Of a stretch of 32,651 nucleotides of DNA, positions 11,146 through 17,215 are shown piece by piece (positions within the stretch are counted from its first letter, which is position 1; every line of letters begins with the position of its first letter). The stretch comes from a virus. Lineage: Duplodnaviria; Caudoviricetes. The notes under the pieces were generated by a model that was not told the DNA's origin, made no database searches, and saw nothing but the letters and a program-made list of their open reading frames with translations. The position numbers were made by a program, and so were the translations under genes. The DNA lies in the IMG/VR virus record IMGVR_UViG_3300005573_001290, positions 1 to 32,651 of that record, one strand, 5' to 3'.

Positions 11146-14100
11146 TTATCCCACCACCAGCCCTGGACTCATTTGCAAGGCCGCCGACTGCCGGCGGCCG
11201 GCGTTCTGCTTCATCGCATTCATCGCCGCCGATTGCACCGCGCGCGGGTTGCTCACCACCACGCGCACGGTCTCCTGCTCGAAGAACTCCTTGGCCCCCG
11301 GCACGGTGATGTTAATGACCGTCGTCCCACTGGACGCCACACCTGCTCCGATCCGGTCGAGAGAGAACCCGCCGGAGCCCTGGGAGAATAGCGCGCCGCC
11401 ATATTGAACCATCGACACCGGGCGCATGACAGGCGGCAGTCCTGCCGTGCTCTGGCCGGTGCTCATGGCGTAGAGCTCGACCAGTTCCCGCACCGGCTGG
11501 CTGCGGATGGCCATGTCGAGGTTGCCGCCAAATCCCTGCTTGGCGATCTCAACGATCTGGCGCAGGATGTTCTTCTCGCGGATCTCGACGCCGTAGGTGG
11601 CCTTGATCTTCTCCCGCACCTTCTGCTCCGCGCTCTGCCGGAACATGCCGAGGATTCCGGCGAACGCACCGATACCCGCCGCCGCAATCCATCCCACTGG
11701 TCCGGCAGCAACCAGCGCCGGGAAGAAGCTAGCCAGCGCGCCGAACCCCGCCAGGCCGCTGATCGCGCCCAGCGCCGGCGCCAGCCCGCGCCCCACTCCA
11801 CCGCCTTGCCCGAGCCGGAATGCACCCATCAGCCCCAAGCCCGCGCCAAGCAGTCCAAGTTGTGGCGCCATCGCCGCCAGTCCCGCCCGAGTCACGCCCA
11901 GGCCAGCTCCGAGCCCCGTCAAACCACCCAGGCCTCCGGCGGGAGTACTCGCTGCCGACCCGGTGCCACCGCCAATCGCGCCAAACACAGGCGCCGCACC
12001 GGCGCCGAGTATGCCGCCTGCGGCCCCGGCCAGGGATACCCGCTGCCCCGTGAATAAATAGGTCAGCATCGCTGCGATGCGCGAGGTCACGACCTCTTTG
12101 ATAGCGGTCAGCAGCGCCGTCTTGAGCGAGTCCGCCAGCGCCGACCAGATCGACCGGCCCTTCGTCAGCAAGGCATCAAACACCCCCTCGGCCTGCCGCC
12201 GGAAGCTGTCGAAGATCCGCTGGTTCTCATCCCGGATGATCTGGGTTTGCCGAATGGCTGCCGATTGCCGCGCCGCATCCAGTGCCGCCTGCGTGTCGGC
12301 GTCGAGCCGCTGCCCGCGCTCGGCGTACTGTTGGAGAATGGCGTCCCGGCGCGCGGCGATTTGCTCCTCCGCCATGCCCCGCGCCCGGGCGATCGTCTCC
12401 ATCGTGTCGAGCTCGATTTCGGACTCGCGCTTGAGTTGATCGGCAAGCAGTCGAAACCGGGTCATTAAGTAGCGCTCCTCGATGGCAAGCTTTTGGGCAA
12501 CCCCATCGAGCTGCTGCTGGACGGTCGCGGTCTCCATCCGATCCAGATGGCGCAGCTCGTAATCCCGGACATGCTCAGCTGCCTGCTCCTCGTAGGTGAG
12601 TCTCGCCTCAAGTGCCTGCCGTTGAATCTCCAGCGTTTCCGTCTCGAACTGGCGCTCCTCGGCAACCTGCTGCTGGCGCCAGTTCAGAAATTTCTCTTTT
12701 GCACCCTCAGCATCTCTTTCCACCTCCGCCAGAGGCTTGCCGCTCTCTAGCTTGATTCGCTGGAGCTCATTGGACACAAGCGTCACAGTGGCCCGATTGA
12801 TATCCCAGATGGCGGCAGCCGTCAGACCGTAGACGTTCAGTAATTTCTGTCTCTCGGCATAGATCCGTCCCATGTTGCCAAGTTCGGCGGTTTGGGCCGA
12901 CAAAAGATATTCGCGGGCCTGCTTTTCGGCCTCCCGTTGCTTCTCCCTCTCCTTTTCGAGCTCTTCCAGTTCTTCAAAGTTGATGCCAGGCCCGCGCACC
13001 TTAAAGCCGGTCTCGACCTCCAGGTCCAATGGTTCCATGGACCGGCCGCCGATCGCCTGCCGAATCTCAGCCTCGCTCAGGCCGGCGGCTGTCATCTGCT
13101 CCAGCGTCTTGCCTGACTTGAGCCCAGAGAAGACCTCAGCCTGCCGGTTGAGCCGCTCCAGTGATTCCCGGAATTCATCGGCGCGCTTCCTCTCGCGCCA
13201 GAGCACCCCACCGAACGCAGCCAGACCAGCGCCAGCCAATGCCCAAGGGCTCAGCAGTCCCATGGCAGCCGCAAGGCCCTTTATCGCCGCGGCGACTTTG
13301 GGAATCGCAGTCACCAGCGAATAAAGACCGATTGCGATTCCGATTTCCGCGAGCGCATTTGCGAGGTCCTTGACATAGGTGATCGCTTGCCGCAGACCAC
13401 CGCCTCTTACCCAACGGACCATCTTGTCGGTGAGTTCAACCAGCCGCGGCGTGAGTTCATTGGCCAGGGCGAACTTCAGGCCTTGAATCGCCGATTGCAA
13501 TCGCCTGAGGTTGTCGGTGAACTGCCCGGCGGCCCGGAGCGCATCTTCGCCAACCACCAGGCCAAAGTCATGCGCCTCCTGCCGCAAGCGGCGGATCTCT
13601 GATCCGCCCTGATTCAAAAACGGAATCATCTCCCGGCCCGAGCGGCCGAGCAGGGTCATGGAGAGCGCCACCTGAGTCGCATCCTCCGGCATCTGGCGGA
13701 AGCGGTCGGCCAGATCCTCCAGGACATCTCCGGCATTGCGGAGTTGCCCGCGCTGGTCGCGGAAGGACACGCCGAGCGCCTCAAAGGCGCGTCTCTGCTC
13801 CCCGGCTCCCTTGGCGGCCTCCATCATGTTGCGCGAGAGACTTCCGACGGAGGTAGCGAGCTGCTCCGCGCTTATGCCCGACAGTTCGGCAACCTGCTTG
13901 AGCTCAGAATAGGCCGCTACGCTCAGCCCAACTTTCTGCGCGGCCTTGCCCATGGCGTCCTGCTGCTCAAGAGCGCCAATCGTCAGGGATTGAATGGCGC
14001 GCGCAGCGGACATGAGCGCGCCATAGATGGCCAGGCCGGCGACGACGGCCTTCGTCATGCTGGCGGTCATGCCGTCGATGCCTTGCGATGCGCCCCGGGC

Positions 14101-14214
14101 GCTCTTGACGGCCGCGGCTTCCATGCTGGAGAGATTCGCGTTGACGCCCTTGAGGGACGCATTAGCCCGGCTGGCATCCACTTCCACGACGAGCTCGAGA
14201 CGGTTGTCGGCCAT
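11146..14214 (-). CDS. tape measure protein (1022 aa from MADNRLEL)
   Basis: Long Ala/Leu helical protein, FEALGVS...LLGRSGREMIPFLNQG core, Gly-rich hydrophobic C-terminal part; downstream of the tail chaperone. Confidence 0.92.
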   Translation of the reverse strand: MADNRLELVVEVDASRANASLKGVNANLSSMEAAAVKSARGASQGIDGMTASMTKAVVAGLAIYGALMSAARAIQSLTIGALEQQDAMGKAAQKVGLSVAAYSELKQVAELSGISAEQLATSVGSLSRNMMEAAKGAGEQRRAFEALGVSFRDQRGQLRNAGDVLEDLADRFRQMPEDATQVALSMTLLGRSGREMIPFLNQGGSEIRRLRQEAHDFGLVVGEDALRAAGQFTDNLRRLQSAIQGLKFALANELTPRLVELTDKMVRWVRGGGLRQAITYVKDLANALAEIGIAIGLYSLVTAIPKVAAAIKGLAAAMGLLSPWALAGAGLAAFGGVLWRERKRADEFRESLERLNRQAEVFSGLKSGKTLEQMTAAGLSEAEIRQAIGGRSMEPLDLEVETGFKVRGPGINFEELEELEKEREKQREAEKQAREYLLSAQTAELGNMGRIYAERQKLLNVYGLTAAAIWDINRATVTLVSNELQRIKLESGKPLAEVERDAEGAKEKFLNWRQQQVAEERQFETETLEIQRQALEARLTYEEQAAEHVRDYELRHLDRMETATVQQQLDGVAQKLAIEERYLMTRFRLLADQLKRESEIELDTMETIARARGMAEEQIAARRDAILQQYAERGQRLDADTQAALDAARQSAAIRQTQIIRDENQRIFDSFRRQAEGVFDALLTKGRSIWSALADSLKTALLTAIKEVVTSRIAAMLTYLFTGQRVSLAGAAGGILGAGAAPVFGAIGGGTGSAASTPAGGLGGLTGLGAGLGVTRAGLAAMAPQLGLLGAGLGLMGAFRLGQGGGVGRGLAPALGAISGLAGFGALASFFPALVAAGPVGWIAAAGIGAFAGILGMFRQSAEQKVREKIKATYGVEIREKNILRQIVEIAKQGFGGNLDMAIRSQPVRELVELYAMSTGQSTAGLPPVMRPVSMVQYGGALFSQGSGGFSLDRIGAGVASSGTTVINITVPGAKEFFEQETVRVVVSNPRAVQSAAMNAMKQNAGRRQSAALQMSPGLVVG

Positions 14215-14228
14215 GCGAAGAGCGGCTC

Positions 14229-14257
14229 TTGCGATTTCGCAATATTGCGAATAGACT
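14229..14257 (+). promoter_or_regulatory. sigma70-type promoter with a perfect 16-bp palindrome in the spacer
   Basis: TTGCGA-17 bp-TAGACT; TTCGCAATATTGCGAA at 14236-14251; ATG 8 nt downstream of the -10 box. Confidence 0.75.
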
Positions 14258-14265
14258 GGATTAGG

Positions 14266-14643
14266 ATGCCAAGGACAAAGGTCGTCCTTTACGGCGAGCA
14301 AGACGGCGCCTGCCCGTTTCTTGACTGGTACAGCGGCTTACCGGTCAAGGCGCAGGCGAAATGCCTGCTCCGGCTGGAACGGCTGCGCGAGTTGGGGCAT
14401 GAGCTGCGCCGCCCGGAGGCGGACTACTTGCGGGACGGGATCTATGAACTTCGCGTCCGCTGTCAGCACGCGCACTTCCGGATCTTGTACTTTTTCCATG
14501 GGACAGTCGCTGCGGTCGTCTCCCACGGCATTGTGAAAGAAGGGGCAGTCCCCGCGAAGGAGATCGACCGGGCGATTCAGCGCAAGAAGTGCTTCGAGGC
14601 CGATCCGGCCGGACACAGCCATTTCGAGGAGGTCTCACAATGA
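14266..14643 (+). CDS. RelE/ParE-superfamily toxin (Gp49/DUF891-like)
   Basis: CPFLDWY...LERLRELGHELRRPEADYLRDGIYELRVR...RILYFF...SHGIVKE...EIDRA. Confidence 0.85.
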   Translation: MPRTKVVLYGEQDGACPFLDWYSGLPVKAQAKCLLRLERLRELGHELRRPEADYLRDGIYELRVRCQHAHFRILYFFHGTVAAVVSHGIVKEGAVPAKEIDRAIQRKKCFEADPAGHSHFEEVSQ

Positions 14644-14960
14644 GCGGCAAACGAAAGTCTACGAGCGATGCGGTGGAGATTCTTCACCGGCGATTCTTTC
14701 AGGGGCGGCCAGAGCGCCTGAAGGCATTGGAAGAGGCCCGAGCCGACGACGAGGTCGCCCGGAAAATCTATGAACTTCGGACAAAGGCCGGCTTGACACA
14801 AGCCCAATTGGCCAAGATGATCGGCACTACGGCGTCGGTGATCTCACGCCTCGAGGATGCCGACTATGAAGGTCACTCCCTGGCCATGTTGCGCCGGATC
14901 GCAGCGGCCTTGAACCGGCGTGTGGAGATCCGCTTCGTTCCGGTCCGGAGATCTGCCTGA
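14640..14960 (+). CDS. XRE-family HTH antitoxin
   Basis: IYELRTKAGLTQAQLAKMIGTTASVISRLE...SLAMLRRIAAAL; ATGA overlap with the toxin; GAGGAGG RBS. Confidence 0.9.
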   Translation: MSGKRKSTSDAVEILHRRFFQGRPERLKALEEARADDEVARKIYELRTKAGLTQAQLAKMIGTTASVISRLEDADYEGHSLAMLRRIAAALNRRVEIRFVPVRRSA

Positions 14961-14962
14961 GC

Positions 14963-15208
14963 ATGGAAGACAACCGGCAAGGAAGATCGGCTTCCGAAGT
15001 CAGCCTGCATTCCGTGGTTGCCCTGCTGGCCGACCTGCCAGAGCGCGGCTTGGTTCGCGGCCAGGTGGGGACGGTCGTCGAACGCCTCGCCCCCGGTGTG
15101 TACGAGGTGGAATTCAGCGATGACCAAGGGCGCACATACGCGACAGTGGCTCTGGAGGCGGGGCAACTCATGCGCCTGCACTATCGGCCAGTTCACGAGG
15201 CGGCCTAG
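14963..15208 (+). CDS. DUF4926 family protein (orphan copy, putative immunity/antitoxin)
   Basis: VVALLADLPERGLVRGQVGTVVE...YEVEFSDDQGRTYA. Confidence 0.85.
   Translation: MEDNRQGRSASEVSLHSVVALLADLPERGLVRGQVGTVVERLAPGVYEVEFSDDQGRTYATVALEAGQLMRLHYRPVHEAA
15013..15124 (+). repeat. 112-bp direct repeat, copy 1 (core of DUF4926)
   Basis: Identical to 16092-16203 except one base (A15040 vs C16119); flanks diverge. Confidence 0.9.
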
Positions 15209-15326
15209 GCGCTTTTTGCCGCCGCCACTTCCATGCTTGACAGATTTGCATTGACGCTCTTGACGGACGCATTGCCCGGTTGGCGTCCACTTCCACGACG
15301 AGCTCGAGACGGTTGTCTGAAGGCAC
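15205..15326 (-). pseudogene. orphan copy of the tape-measure 5' end (copy B)
   Basis: Reads VPSDNRLELVVEVDANR[1-nt deletion]ANASVKSVNANLSSMEVAAAKSA*, aligning to TMP codons 1-39 (14098-14214). Confidence 0.9.
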
Positions 15327-15356
15327 TTAGCGGCCAGGCTGCTTTAAGATAAGGTT

Positions 15357-15539
15357 ATGCCCAAGGTTGCCGAAAGACCTGCTGCCCGGCCTTCCCTGAA
15401 GCGGAGTGGAGGGGCGGCGTCGGCTTTAGGCCGGAAGTTGCGGCGGATCAGCGACAGGATTGCTGCCTCTGGGGAGAAATTGCTCTCCCGGCGGGAACTG
15501 GAGCGCGAGGTGGCCGAACGGCGCGGCGGAGTGCGCTAG
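15357..15539 (+). CDS. small putative antitoxin (VapB-position partner of a PIN toxin)
   Basis: LGRKLRRISDRIAASGEKLLSRRELEREVAERRG; TAAGAT -10 box 6 nt before ATG; directly upstream of a PIN N-terminus. Confidence 0.65.
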   Translation: MPKVAERPAARPSLKRSGGAASALGRKLRRISDRIAASGEKLLSRRELEREVAERRGGVR

Positions 15540-15544
15540 ATCGA

Positions 15545-15589
15545 ATGATCCGAACGTTTCTGGACAGCGGGGTGCTGTTGGCCGCCGCC
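15545..15589 (+). pseudogene. truncated PIN-domain (VapC-like) toxin, first 15 codons only
   Basis: MIRTFLDSGVLLAAA matches the PIN N-terminal motif with the first catalytic Asp; it then runs into antisense TMP copy C and stops at 15709. Confidence 0.7.
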
Positions 15590-15687
15590 ACTTCCATTCT
15601 GGAGAGATTCGCGTTGACGGTCTTGATGGATGCATTGGCCCGGTTGGCATCCACTTCAATGACGAATTCGAGTCTGTTGTCAGACAT
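15571..15687 (-). pseudogene. orphan copy of the tape-measure 5' end (copy C)
   Basis: MSDNRLEFVIEVDANRANASIKTVNANLSRMEVAAANST vs TMP MADNRLELVVEVDASRANASLKGVNANLSSMEAAAVKSA. Confidence 0.9.
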
Positions 15688-15718
15688 GGGTATCGAAAGA
15701 AGTTGGTAGGATCGACAC

Positions 15719-16060
15719 TTGATGCTCTTGCCGGGCGCCGACCGTGCCGTCGTCGATATCGTGAAGCTTCGCCACTACTGTCTCAGCCCCACTCATCCAC
15801 GAGGCCGTCACAAGGCGCGGGTGTTTGCCGCGACTGTGGGCCTCACCGCCGCCGATGCCGAGTTACTTCGGCAGGCCCTCTTGGACGCAGCGCGTACGGG
15901 CGAGGCGATCGTGGGCACGGCAGATGAATACGGCCAGCGCTATGCGGTCGACTTCGATTTCGTGAGGGCTGGAAGGCGAGCCCGCATTCGTAGTGCCTGG
16001 ATCGTACTTACTGGTGAGGACTTTCCGCGGTTCACGAGTTGTCATGTATTATTGGATTGA
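15719..16060 (+). CDS. DUF6883 family protein (putative nuclease-type toxin)
   Basis: LPGADRAVVDIVKLRHYCLSPTHPRGRHKARVF...DEYGQRY...IRSAWIV...PRFTS; followed by DUF4926; start TTG 15719 or ATG 15722. Confidence 0.8.
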   Translation: MMLLPGADRAVVDIVKLRHYCLSPTHPRGRHKARVFAATVGLTAADAELLRQALLDAARTGEAIVGTADEYGQRYAVDFDFVRAGRRARIRSAWIVLTGEDFPRFTSCHVLLD

Positions 16061-16068
16061 GGCCTGCC

Positions 16069-16287
16069 ATGGCGGAACTTGAACTGCTCAGCGTGGTTGC
16101 CCTGCTGGCCGACCTGCCCGAGCGCGGCTTGGTTCGCGGCCAGGTGGGGACGGTCGTCGAACGCCTCGCCCCCGGTGTGTACGAGGTGGAATTCAGCGAT
16201 GACGCTGGCAGAACATATGCCTCGTTGGCCGTGTCCGGCGAGCAGCTTCTGGTTCTGCATCACGAGCCCATCCATCAAGCCGCTTAA
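16069..16287 (+). CDS. DUF4926 family protein (partner of DUF6883)
   Basis: MAELELLSVVALLADLPERGLVRGQVGTVVE...; GAGG RBS. Confidence 0.85.
   Translation: MAELELLSVVALLADLPERGLVRGQVGTVVERLAPGVYEVEFSDDAGRTYASLAVSGEQLLVLHHEPIHQAA
16092..16203 (+). repeat. 112-bp direct repeat, copy 2
   Basis: 111/112 identical to 15013-15124. Confidence 0.9.
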
Positions 16288-16289
16288 GA

Positions 16290-16616
16290 TCATTGAGCCT
16301 CGATCCGTTCACTGTCCAGCCGTTCACGTTCCTCTTCCAGGATGACCATCGCTGCGAACTCATCCGCGCGGATCTCGTCGAGGCCGATTCGGACGCCCAA
16401 CTTCAACGCCGCGCGAAGGTCAATCGCGAGACGCAACAACAGACCGGCCTCCGAGGATTGAGCCGCATCCAGCTTGTCCAGCGGGCAGTGATCACAGCGG
16501 CCACCGTCGTCGGGCGCGTCCGGACAGAGACCAGGGTCGCAGAGCTCTTCGCGGCGCAGCGCCCAGTGAATCAGGAACCGCAGGGAGGGCCGCTCCGGCC
16601 ACTCCGCCGGTGTTAG
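16290..16616 (-). CDS. gpT-like C-terminal extension of the tail assembly chaperone (-1 frame; absent from the ORF track)
   Basis: Open 109-codon frame LTPAEWPERPSLRFLIHWALRREELCDPGLCPDAPDDGGRCDHCPL...RIEAQ* starting at the slippery site. Confidence 0.8.
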   Translation of the reverse strand, partial: LTPAEWPERPSLRFLIHWALRREELCDPGLCPDAPDDGGRCDHCPLDKLDAAQSSEAGLLLRLAIDLRAALKLGVRIGLDEIRADEFAAMVILEEERERLDSERIEAQ

Positions 16617-17215
16617 TTTGGGTCCGAGGACTCCGCGAAGGCGCCGTCGAGGGCGTCGATGGCGGCTTTTACGGCCACGGCCTGGTGGATGATGGGCGCC
16701 TCGCCCGCGTAGCCTTCGGTGGAGTCCACCAGCTTCTTGTAGAGCGCCGCCGCCGGTGTGAGGTTAATGATCAACTCCTGGCGGTTGTAAGGCAGATCGA
16801 GCACGCGCGCGAAGCCGCGGCGGTATTCGAAGACGTCCTTGGCCGAGGGCATCCGCAGCACATGCGTTACCGTGCCACCCAGCACGCGCATCGTCACGCG
16901 GAAGCCGTCGCCAGCCTGGACCACGTCGTCGACATCGGCCTGGCTCAACTGCTCGATGATCCGGCTGGCCTCGAAGGCGTCCACCTCGGGCGCGTTCTCG
17001 TCGGCCAGACGGATCTTGGCGAGCAGCGCGGCGTCGGCATCGTGAGAGTCAGGGATCGTCGTCTCGGAGACGCCCCGGCCCAGTTGTTTCACGATGACCT
17101 TGCGCCTCTTCTGGCGGTCGATCCACTCTTCGTCACTCGGAAAGCGCACGCGAACCGGCTTTACGCCTTCGGGCGTGCGCAGGTGGATGGTGATGGATTG
17201 CTTTGCGTCAAACAT
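16613..17215 (-). CDS. tail assembly chaperone (gpG-like), 200 aa from MFDAKQ
   Basis: Between major tail and TMP; AAAGGA RBS; ends at a slippery heptamer. Confidence 0.8.
   Translation of the reverse strand: MFDAKQSITIHLRTPEGVKPVRVRFPSDEEWIDRQKRRKVIVKQLGRGVSETTIPDSHDADAALLAKIRLADENAPEVDAFEASRIIEQLSQADVDDVVQAGDGFRVTMRVLGGTVTHVLRMPSAKDVFEYRRGFARVLDLPYNRQELIINLTPAAALYKKLVDSTEGYAGEAPIIHQAVAVKAAIDALDGAFAESSDPN
16616..16622 (-). promoter_or_regulatory. programmed -1 ribosomal frameshift heptamer C CCA AAC
   Basis: X XXY YYZ pattern in the correct phase immediately before the TAA stop, with an open -1 frame downstream. Confidence 0.8.

Follow-up and report, generated by a model that had tools for sequence, protein, structure and literature searches.

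Gene Content of the Chaperone–Tape Measure Interval

The window, by which we mean the whole stretch of DNA analysed here (32,651 nucleotides; IMG/VR record IMGVR_UViG_3300005573_001290), is a 32.7-kb fragment, 57% complete, of a lambda-like phage; its relatives reside mostly in Bryobacterales/Acidobacteriota genomes, and DNA near-identical to the window comes chiefly from hot-spring metagenomes, with no RNA run among the 22 runs listed. Between its tail assembly chaperone and its tape measure protein (TMP) gene lies an array in which cassettes resembling toxin–antitoxin (TA) systems alternate with copies of the TMP start. The order along the minus strand is chaperone, chaperone extension, DUF4926–DUF6883 (antisense), TMP start C, a PIN remnant with a 60-aa open reading frame (ORF), TMP start B, DUF4926–HTH–Gp49/RelE-like (antisense), and the functional TMP gene, or copy A (Table 1). 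A preliminary description of the window had proposed this layout of three antisense cassettes and two orphan TMP starts, and it is borne out, with both joins recurring in other assemblies.

Copy A opens an uninterrupted 1022-aa frame from 14214 and matches tape-measure PHROGs, and the chaperone has no Pfam or PHROG match. The extension is presumably a frameshift product, given its lambda G/GT-type layout, and in relatives with an empty interval its stop overlaps the TMP start codon. Pfam confirmed the contents previously given for two of the cassettes, DUF6883 with DUF4926, and RelE-like with HTH and DUF4926, the former pair being described in a preprint as a predicted ribonuclease toxin–immunity pair (bioRxiv 10.64898/2026.08.28.747851). 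The middle cassette had been read as an antitoxin plus a truncated PIN, and here the truncation stands: the 54-aa ORF at 15545-15709 holds just 15 codons of a PIN gene, the remainder having been cut off, and the intact homologue of that gene is a 132-aa PIN protein (PF01850) in the related locus L176. The identity of the antitoxin does not stand in the same way, because the 60-aa ORF has no Pfam or PHROG match and its Atlas clusters are all unnamed, so that its label comes only from its position before the PIN gene; its homologues precede PIN genes in L316 and L333. The GC content of the interval is 0.60–0.63 against 0.58–0.69 over the tail genes, and a promoter scan gave two promoter-like matches, none upstream of any cassette, with one terminator-like match versus 1.9 expected.

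Table 1. Features of the chaperone–TMP interval and its borders, in window coordinates.
Feature	Position	Strand	Basis and remarks
Tail assembly chaperone	16613..17215	-	Named by position; search anchor for 240 related loci
Chaperone extension	16290..16577	-	Likely frameshift product; stop at 16290
DUF4926 copy a	16069..16287	+	Predicted immunity protein; Pfam, role from bioRxiv 10.64898/2026.08.28.747851
DUF6883	15719..16060	+	Predicted BECR ribonuclease toxin; Pfam and bioRxiv 10.64898/2026.08.28.747851
Orphan TMP start C	15590..15687	-	Unambiguous TMP part, codons 1-33; decayed
Junction C	15581..15589	-	9-bp microhomology GGCGGCGGC, present in a TMP start and, antisense, in the PIN gene
PIN toxin gene, first 15 codons	15545..15589	+	Remainder lost at junction C
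60-aa putative antitoxin	15357..15539	+	Label by position
Orphan TMP start B	15208..15326	-	Codons 1-39; 1-bp deletion; joined at the stop codon of DUF4926 copy b
DUF4926 copy b	14963..15208	+	Pfam
HTH (Xre-type) putative antitoxin	14640..14960	+	Pfam HTH_3
Gp49/RelE-like putative toxin	14254..14643	+	Pfam PF05973 and PHROG 'toxin'; true start probably near 14263
Functional TMP gene (copy A)	11146..14214	-	1022 aa

The Two Junctions and the Orphan TMP Starts

Junction C can be read against a near-identical donor. L176, which is 94.8% identical to the window over the chaperone and extension, matches window 15589-15463 at 96.9%, that is, from the PIN side of the junction; from 15589 down, what had been counted as TMP codons 33-38 of copy C is therefore PIN-gene DNA, its apparent TMP codons 'A-A-N-S-T' being the antisense strand of PIN codons, and this places the C crossover in codons 33-37. 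The sequence GGCGGCGGC at this point is the longest exact match between the 116 nt of stub B and 755 nt of L176. Junction C thus sits inside a PIN toxin gene, and the incoming toxin gene was destroyed. At junction B, the TMP sequence is kept through codon 39 and joined at the DUF4926 stop codon. Aligned in this manner, the window's two crossovers lie at different bases, and the previous statement that both orphans break at the same place, codons 36-39, had to be given up.

The three TMP starts are distinct alleles, as already proposed, and stand 13–17% apart: over codons 3-38, identity is 86.9% for A-B, 83.3% for A-C and 84.1% for B-C, and the TMP-start profile scores C at 106 bits and B at 97 bits, beyond what chance would give, with background matches below 8 bits. 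The claim that they differ largely by synonymous or conservative changes did not survive, given synonymous/non-synonymous codon differences of 7/5 for A-B, 5/9 for A-C and 9/6 for B-C. The stubs are decaying, since copy B has a 1-bp deletion near codon 17 that shifts its frame, besides carrying V33, and copy C has three residues (F8, R30 and V33) each of which occurs in 0 of 159 distinct functional alleles. A tree of TMP starts, built on 96 columns from the 45 alleles nearest A, B or C plus the two stubs, puts B and C in A's own sub-lineage, with weak support and no starred branch near them, and from this placement the donors of B and C would be close kin; a single clade of A, L154, B and C had a p-AU (approximately unbiased test) of 0.47.

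Two observations concern the remainder of the TMP gene. Among relatives with 76–94% identical chaperones, the TMP body differs sharply past the first ~50 codons (window:13900-14080 vs L003-L080), and window TMP residues 46-260 are matched in only 7 of 80 relatives, so the body appears to have been swapped behind a conserved 5' end. Directly after the TMP gene, a 177-aa ORF (window:10472-11005, minus strand) weakly matches one of the tape-measure families in PHROG (E 1e-6).

The Interval in Related Phages

Using the chaperone, 240 loci were fetched, namely the 80 best from each source, out of 148 viral, 263 metagenome and 92 genome matches; both landmarks were present in 200 (40 lacked a landmark), 186 of these were complete (14 were not), and 142 were distinct at 95% identity. 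Loci from pattern scans (L081-L172 and L333-L340) stand outside this census and served as donors or alleles only. Of the 142 distinct intervals, 64 are empty and 71 carry cargo but lack a stub; one stub is present in 5 and two stubs in the remaining 2, of which the window is one. Cargo at the site falls into 54 types. Pfam annotation covered 101 ORFs (two from the window and 99 chosen among the 276 of 26 representative intervals, themselves taken from the first 80 loci), with later cargo types annotated in L176, L316 and L333 only, and it returned HicB/HicA-like, Gp49-HTH, DUF4926/DUF6883 and PIN proteins, an outer-membrane barrel, metallo-beta-lactamase-fold proteins, M15 and M48 peptidases and Clp-N proteins. 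Several modules may be present with no stub, as in L063 (DUF4926, HTH, HicB) and L067 (HicB-like, DUF4926, DUF6883), and each of the window's cassettes is found alone before a TMP start in other phages (L023 type, L176/L333 and L043 type). The metallo-beta-lactamase-fold cargo of L076 (L076:7933-9255) and L079 (L079:8018-9256) carries an RNA-specificity domain and could be a nuclease-type defence gene.

Nine types of stub junction were found across the family, at TMP codons ~18 (L037/L224, whose stubs are probably one event), 25 (L072), 30 and 104 (L316), 33 (L022/L026/L204), 33-37 and 39 (the window), 53 (L244) and 259 (L267). In L244, codon 53 is joined to the extension end of an L250-type phage (donor 98% identical) through the 9-bp GCGGCCATG, a 9-mer present in 27 of 165 functional starts; a random join would fall within a match of at least 9 bp about 6 times in 100,000. 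In L267, on a 7.4-Mb chromosome record (L267:8552-10606), codon 259 leads through a microhomology of ~5 bp into a second copy of the extension (81%-like), which it enters midway, and no other of the 235 loci has a duplicated extension. L316, a distant relative with a 68% identical chaperone, has its own array of three cassettes and two stubs (L316:2663-4881): an intact PIN gene with a small ORF, a stub of 30 codons running into a PIN remnant with a small ORF, a 104-codon stub, and a Clp-N domain gene. A toxin gene was therefore truncated at the join twice, one PIN gene in the window and another at the first junction of L316.

Variants among Close Kin

The two DUF4926 genes of the window share a 112-bp block with a single mismatch, at 16092-16203 (plus strand) and 15013-15124, with differing flanks, which the preliminary description had missed. 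Kin 92–98% like the window carry variant forms of this array. L001, L174 and L177 equal the window minus all the DNA between the two blocks, L001 and L177 thus representing a collapsed, stub-free form; in L176, PIN is intact; a C-like start stands behind another cassette (972 letters) in L175, X4 and X7, and stub B, here with no deletion, behind yet another (868 letters) in X1, where X numbers denote public sequencing runs; and in L154, codons 1-14 of A's TMP have been replaced together with the upstream DNA. These collapsed and swapped forms are those predicted if the stubs act as homology arms. In the separate contig L143, five differences from the window fall at 15033-15064, within the right-hand 112-bp block, where the contig's 98.3% average would give about two; this may faintly suggest that conversion took place between the two blocks of the window.

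Some apparent variants were discarded. A joint of 15317 to 16356 in X1, considered as an empty-site allele, has 868 letters in between, and loose ends at 15317 in X1, X4 and X7, which resemble A's upstream DNA and could have been taken as a sign of circle excision or tandem copying, result from copy A, outside the compared stretch, mapping onto B. No joint turning back on itself, as a circle would give, was present among the contigs of the public runs, which drop rare forms.

A Recombination Model and Its Alternatives

We consider it quite likely that in this phage family the chaperone–TMP gap is a swap site for accessory TA-like cassettes, and that the orphan starts are scars of misaligned crossovers between close relatives. 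A left parent would have been joined, slightly within its TMP gene and guided by microhomology, to the DNA of the right parent, either within that parent's cassette or immediately ahead of it; an ordinary homologous crossover farther along the TMP gene or the tail would then complete the exchange, and therefore an intact TMP would stand behind the new cassette with the old start stranded. Once formed, as the variants suggest, the stubs and the 112-bp repeat could work as extra homology arms through which the array gains, swaps or loses units. Joins ahead of the TMP start would stack or swap cargo with no stub, the common case, and those removing the TMP start would be lethal. The earlier proposal that a cassette with a replacement TMP start strands the old one was therefore right in outline, and of the mechanisms it had offered, homology-driven recombination fits.

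A phage single-strand annealing protein (RecT- or Sak4-type) encoded in the unassembled part of the genome is the likely enzyme, with the host RecA as another candidate. Among four fuller relatives, RecT is found in one and AAA_24, which we take to be Sak4-type, in two (three of the four have either one). The literature on phage recombinases describes them as dominating exchange between diverged phages (PMC3945230).

It must be asked whether the array exists at all, or whether co-occurring strains were threaded together by the assembler through the 112-bp repeat or a 32-bp stretch common to A and B. Many alleles do coexist in the samples, no piece in the seven runs covers the whole array, the left 112-bp block (16092-16203) is bridged by no near-identical independent contig but only by an 85%-like relative, and all stub B coverage in X1 belongs to the allele without the deletion. 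However, L143 is a separate single contig matching the right-hand 5.4 kb of the window (15589-10176) at 98.3% with no gaps; junction B is bridged in all 7 public runs, from six studies (one run may be the window's own source), and junction C in X1, X3, X4, X5 and X6, with the X7 piece, which has 30 nt on the PIN side, narrowly failing to count as a bridge; single pieces run over 15288-16121 (X1), 15288-16099 (X5) and 15288-16096 (X6); an 85%-like contig in X7 links the extension, by way of cassette 1, with a TMP start; and L316 carries an independent array with two stubs. We therefore regard a chimera as very improbable, and the array is probably not an assembly artefact. A site-specific recombinase acting in trans, such as a prophage serine integrase, which would insert units of cassette plus TMP start at a fixed site near codons 36-39 in integron fashion, is the least credible of the alternatives, although the window's breaks are 2–6 codons apart, B and C have 17 identical bases before the break, and large serine recombinases occur in three of the four fuller relatives. 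Those recombinases lie within 4 kb of the record ends, far from the tail, and no tyrosine recombinase was found above the cut-off in 5 records; the window's own crossovers lie at different bases, seven further junction types are scattered over codons ~18-259, junction C and the first junction of L316 each destroy a PIN gene, and 71 of the 78 distinct occupied intervals have no stub. Since 6 of the 36 junction pairs lie within six codons of each other, the nearness of the B and C breaks is unremarkable, and we reject a fixed breakpoint at codons 36-39.

A local origin, by tandem duplication in one lineage or by a deletion spanning two related prophages in tandem, with the copies afterwards decaying and undergoing gene conversion with one another, is unlikely in our judgement, though less so than the two preceding alternatives. 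It would agree with A, B and C falling in one sub-lineage and all having N27 (13 of 159 alleles), with V33 in both B and C, with the patchwork nature of the copies (B is like A at codons 3-12, and C at codons 24-29), and with the 112-bp block being 99% identical between differing flanks. In contrast, the three cassettes are unrelated and each stands alone before a TMP start elsewhere, whereas a duplication would have copied the cassette too, and B differs from A by four third-position changes in codons 25-29, as in alleles that diverged while functional. As for a deletion across tandem prophages, it gives the same product as the first step of our own model and is not distinguishable from it.

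Several results weigh against the recombination model. V33, which lies within 17 identical bases in B and C, is found in none of the 159 functional alleles, and independent captures leave its sharing unaccounted for; a scan of viral contigs for the V33 allele pattern matched only the L143 contig. The sharing would be explained by a V33 lineage missing from the sample, by conversion of one stub by the other, or by junction C having had a B-type stub as its left parent. Junction B has a microhomology of just 2–3 bp and its nearest donors are ~75% alike, and for five of the nine junctions no donor was found. Four of the nine breaks cluster in codons 30-39, which implies some local preference for the break position; a test of whether in-register crossovers are in excess at the TMP 5' end had little power, with 5 versus 4 usable pairs; and no RecT, serine or tyrosine recombinase was found in the window, a record that is 57% complete. 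The preliminary description had itself named three findings that would speak against its capture model: two were indeed obtained, namely relatives with cassettes, in L063 and L067 several modules, and no TMP duplicate (the 71 of 78 occupied intervals) and scattered breaks (~18 to 259), and the third, a chimeric assembly, was not, with both joins bridged and L143 in agreement.

We also entertain, as a rather doubtful extension, that the duplicated start of an essential gene might be a self-made, recombinase-free gene accordion, in which a rare microhomology join seeds a stub that is then reusable as a homology arm for quick stacking, swapping or shedding of TA or defence cassettes in the phage population, while selection would keep antitoxins as toxins are cut.

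Relation to Known Systems

HK97 gene 15, described as the first named moron, lies between the tail assembly chaperone and tape measure genes (PMC3594210), and this gene and the lambdoid morons share with our locus both that address and the presence of accessory genes in some relatives and their absence in others, as is the case here with 64 of the 142 distinct intervals empty. Unlike them, the window's family has 54 cargo types, often TA-like and antisense, up to three of them stacked, with visible TMP stubs, a GC content not clearly shifted, and own promoters that are putative at most. No description of TMP-start stubs or duplicates at morons was found in the literature searched. Phage mosaicism by relaxed or short-homology recombination is likewise reported with short conserved flanks, one homologous and one illegitimate junction, and RecT/Red-beta-type enzymes working on short matches, RecET joining sequences of 5–13 bp (PMC2327257, PMC3945230); what differs in the window's family is that the illegitimate join lies inside the conserved flank, which is therefore duplicated and becomes a new homology arm. 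Homology-facilitated illegitimate recombination also has a homologous anchor on one side and a microhomology of a few bases on the other, and it differs in being described for RecA-dependent natural transformation (PMC6382021). Microhomologies of this size are present here: 9 bp at junction C and in L244, ~5 bp in L267, and 2–3 bp at junction B.

An integron is a row of small, TA-rich cassettes separated by related repeats, with an adjacent integrase, a fixed crossover base and palindromic attC sites. The likeness of the window's array to it, in its small TA-rich cassettes with related repeats between them, is superficial: no integrase stands alongside in this 57% complete record, there is no fixed crossover base, genes may be cut on entry, the stubs lack any short-spaced inverted repeat of 14 nt or longer such as an attC-like palindrome would show, and most loci of the family gain cargo with no repeat. 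All the integron features examined therefore fail, and with them the fixed-site, integron-like capture first put forward.

Other Features of the Window

Two further regions deserve mention. The terminase large subunit (1003 aa; window:25198-28209, minus strand) contains a LAGLIDADG endonuclease domain at residues ~300-364 that splits its ATPase match and is likely an intein. Between the methylase region and the terminase (window:28776-30121, plus strand), three antisense ORFs of 77–81 aa, with no Pfam match at 0.01, and one longer ORF occupy an A-skewed stretch of lower GC, possibly a second accessory block.

Significance

In summary, the sequence joins make it likely that morons were gained at this locus through recombination guided by microhomology and assisted by homology, which left scars that are unusually easy to read, and not through a dedicated gene-capture machine; the locus points to no new enzyme or new class of element. 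Moron entry has usually had to be inferred, with the joins erased or the donors unknown, and here natural joins are resolved to the single base by comparison with near-identical donors (L176, L250). The family, whose one site accommodates 54 types of cargo, allows the microhomology-plus-homology model of moron gain to be tested directly on natural material, and it also supplies a list of TA and defence cassette candidates from Bryobacterales prophages.

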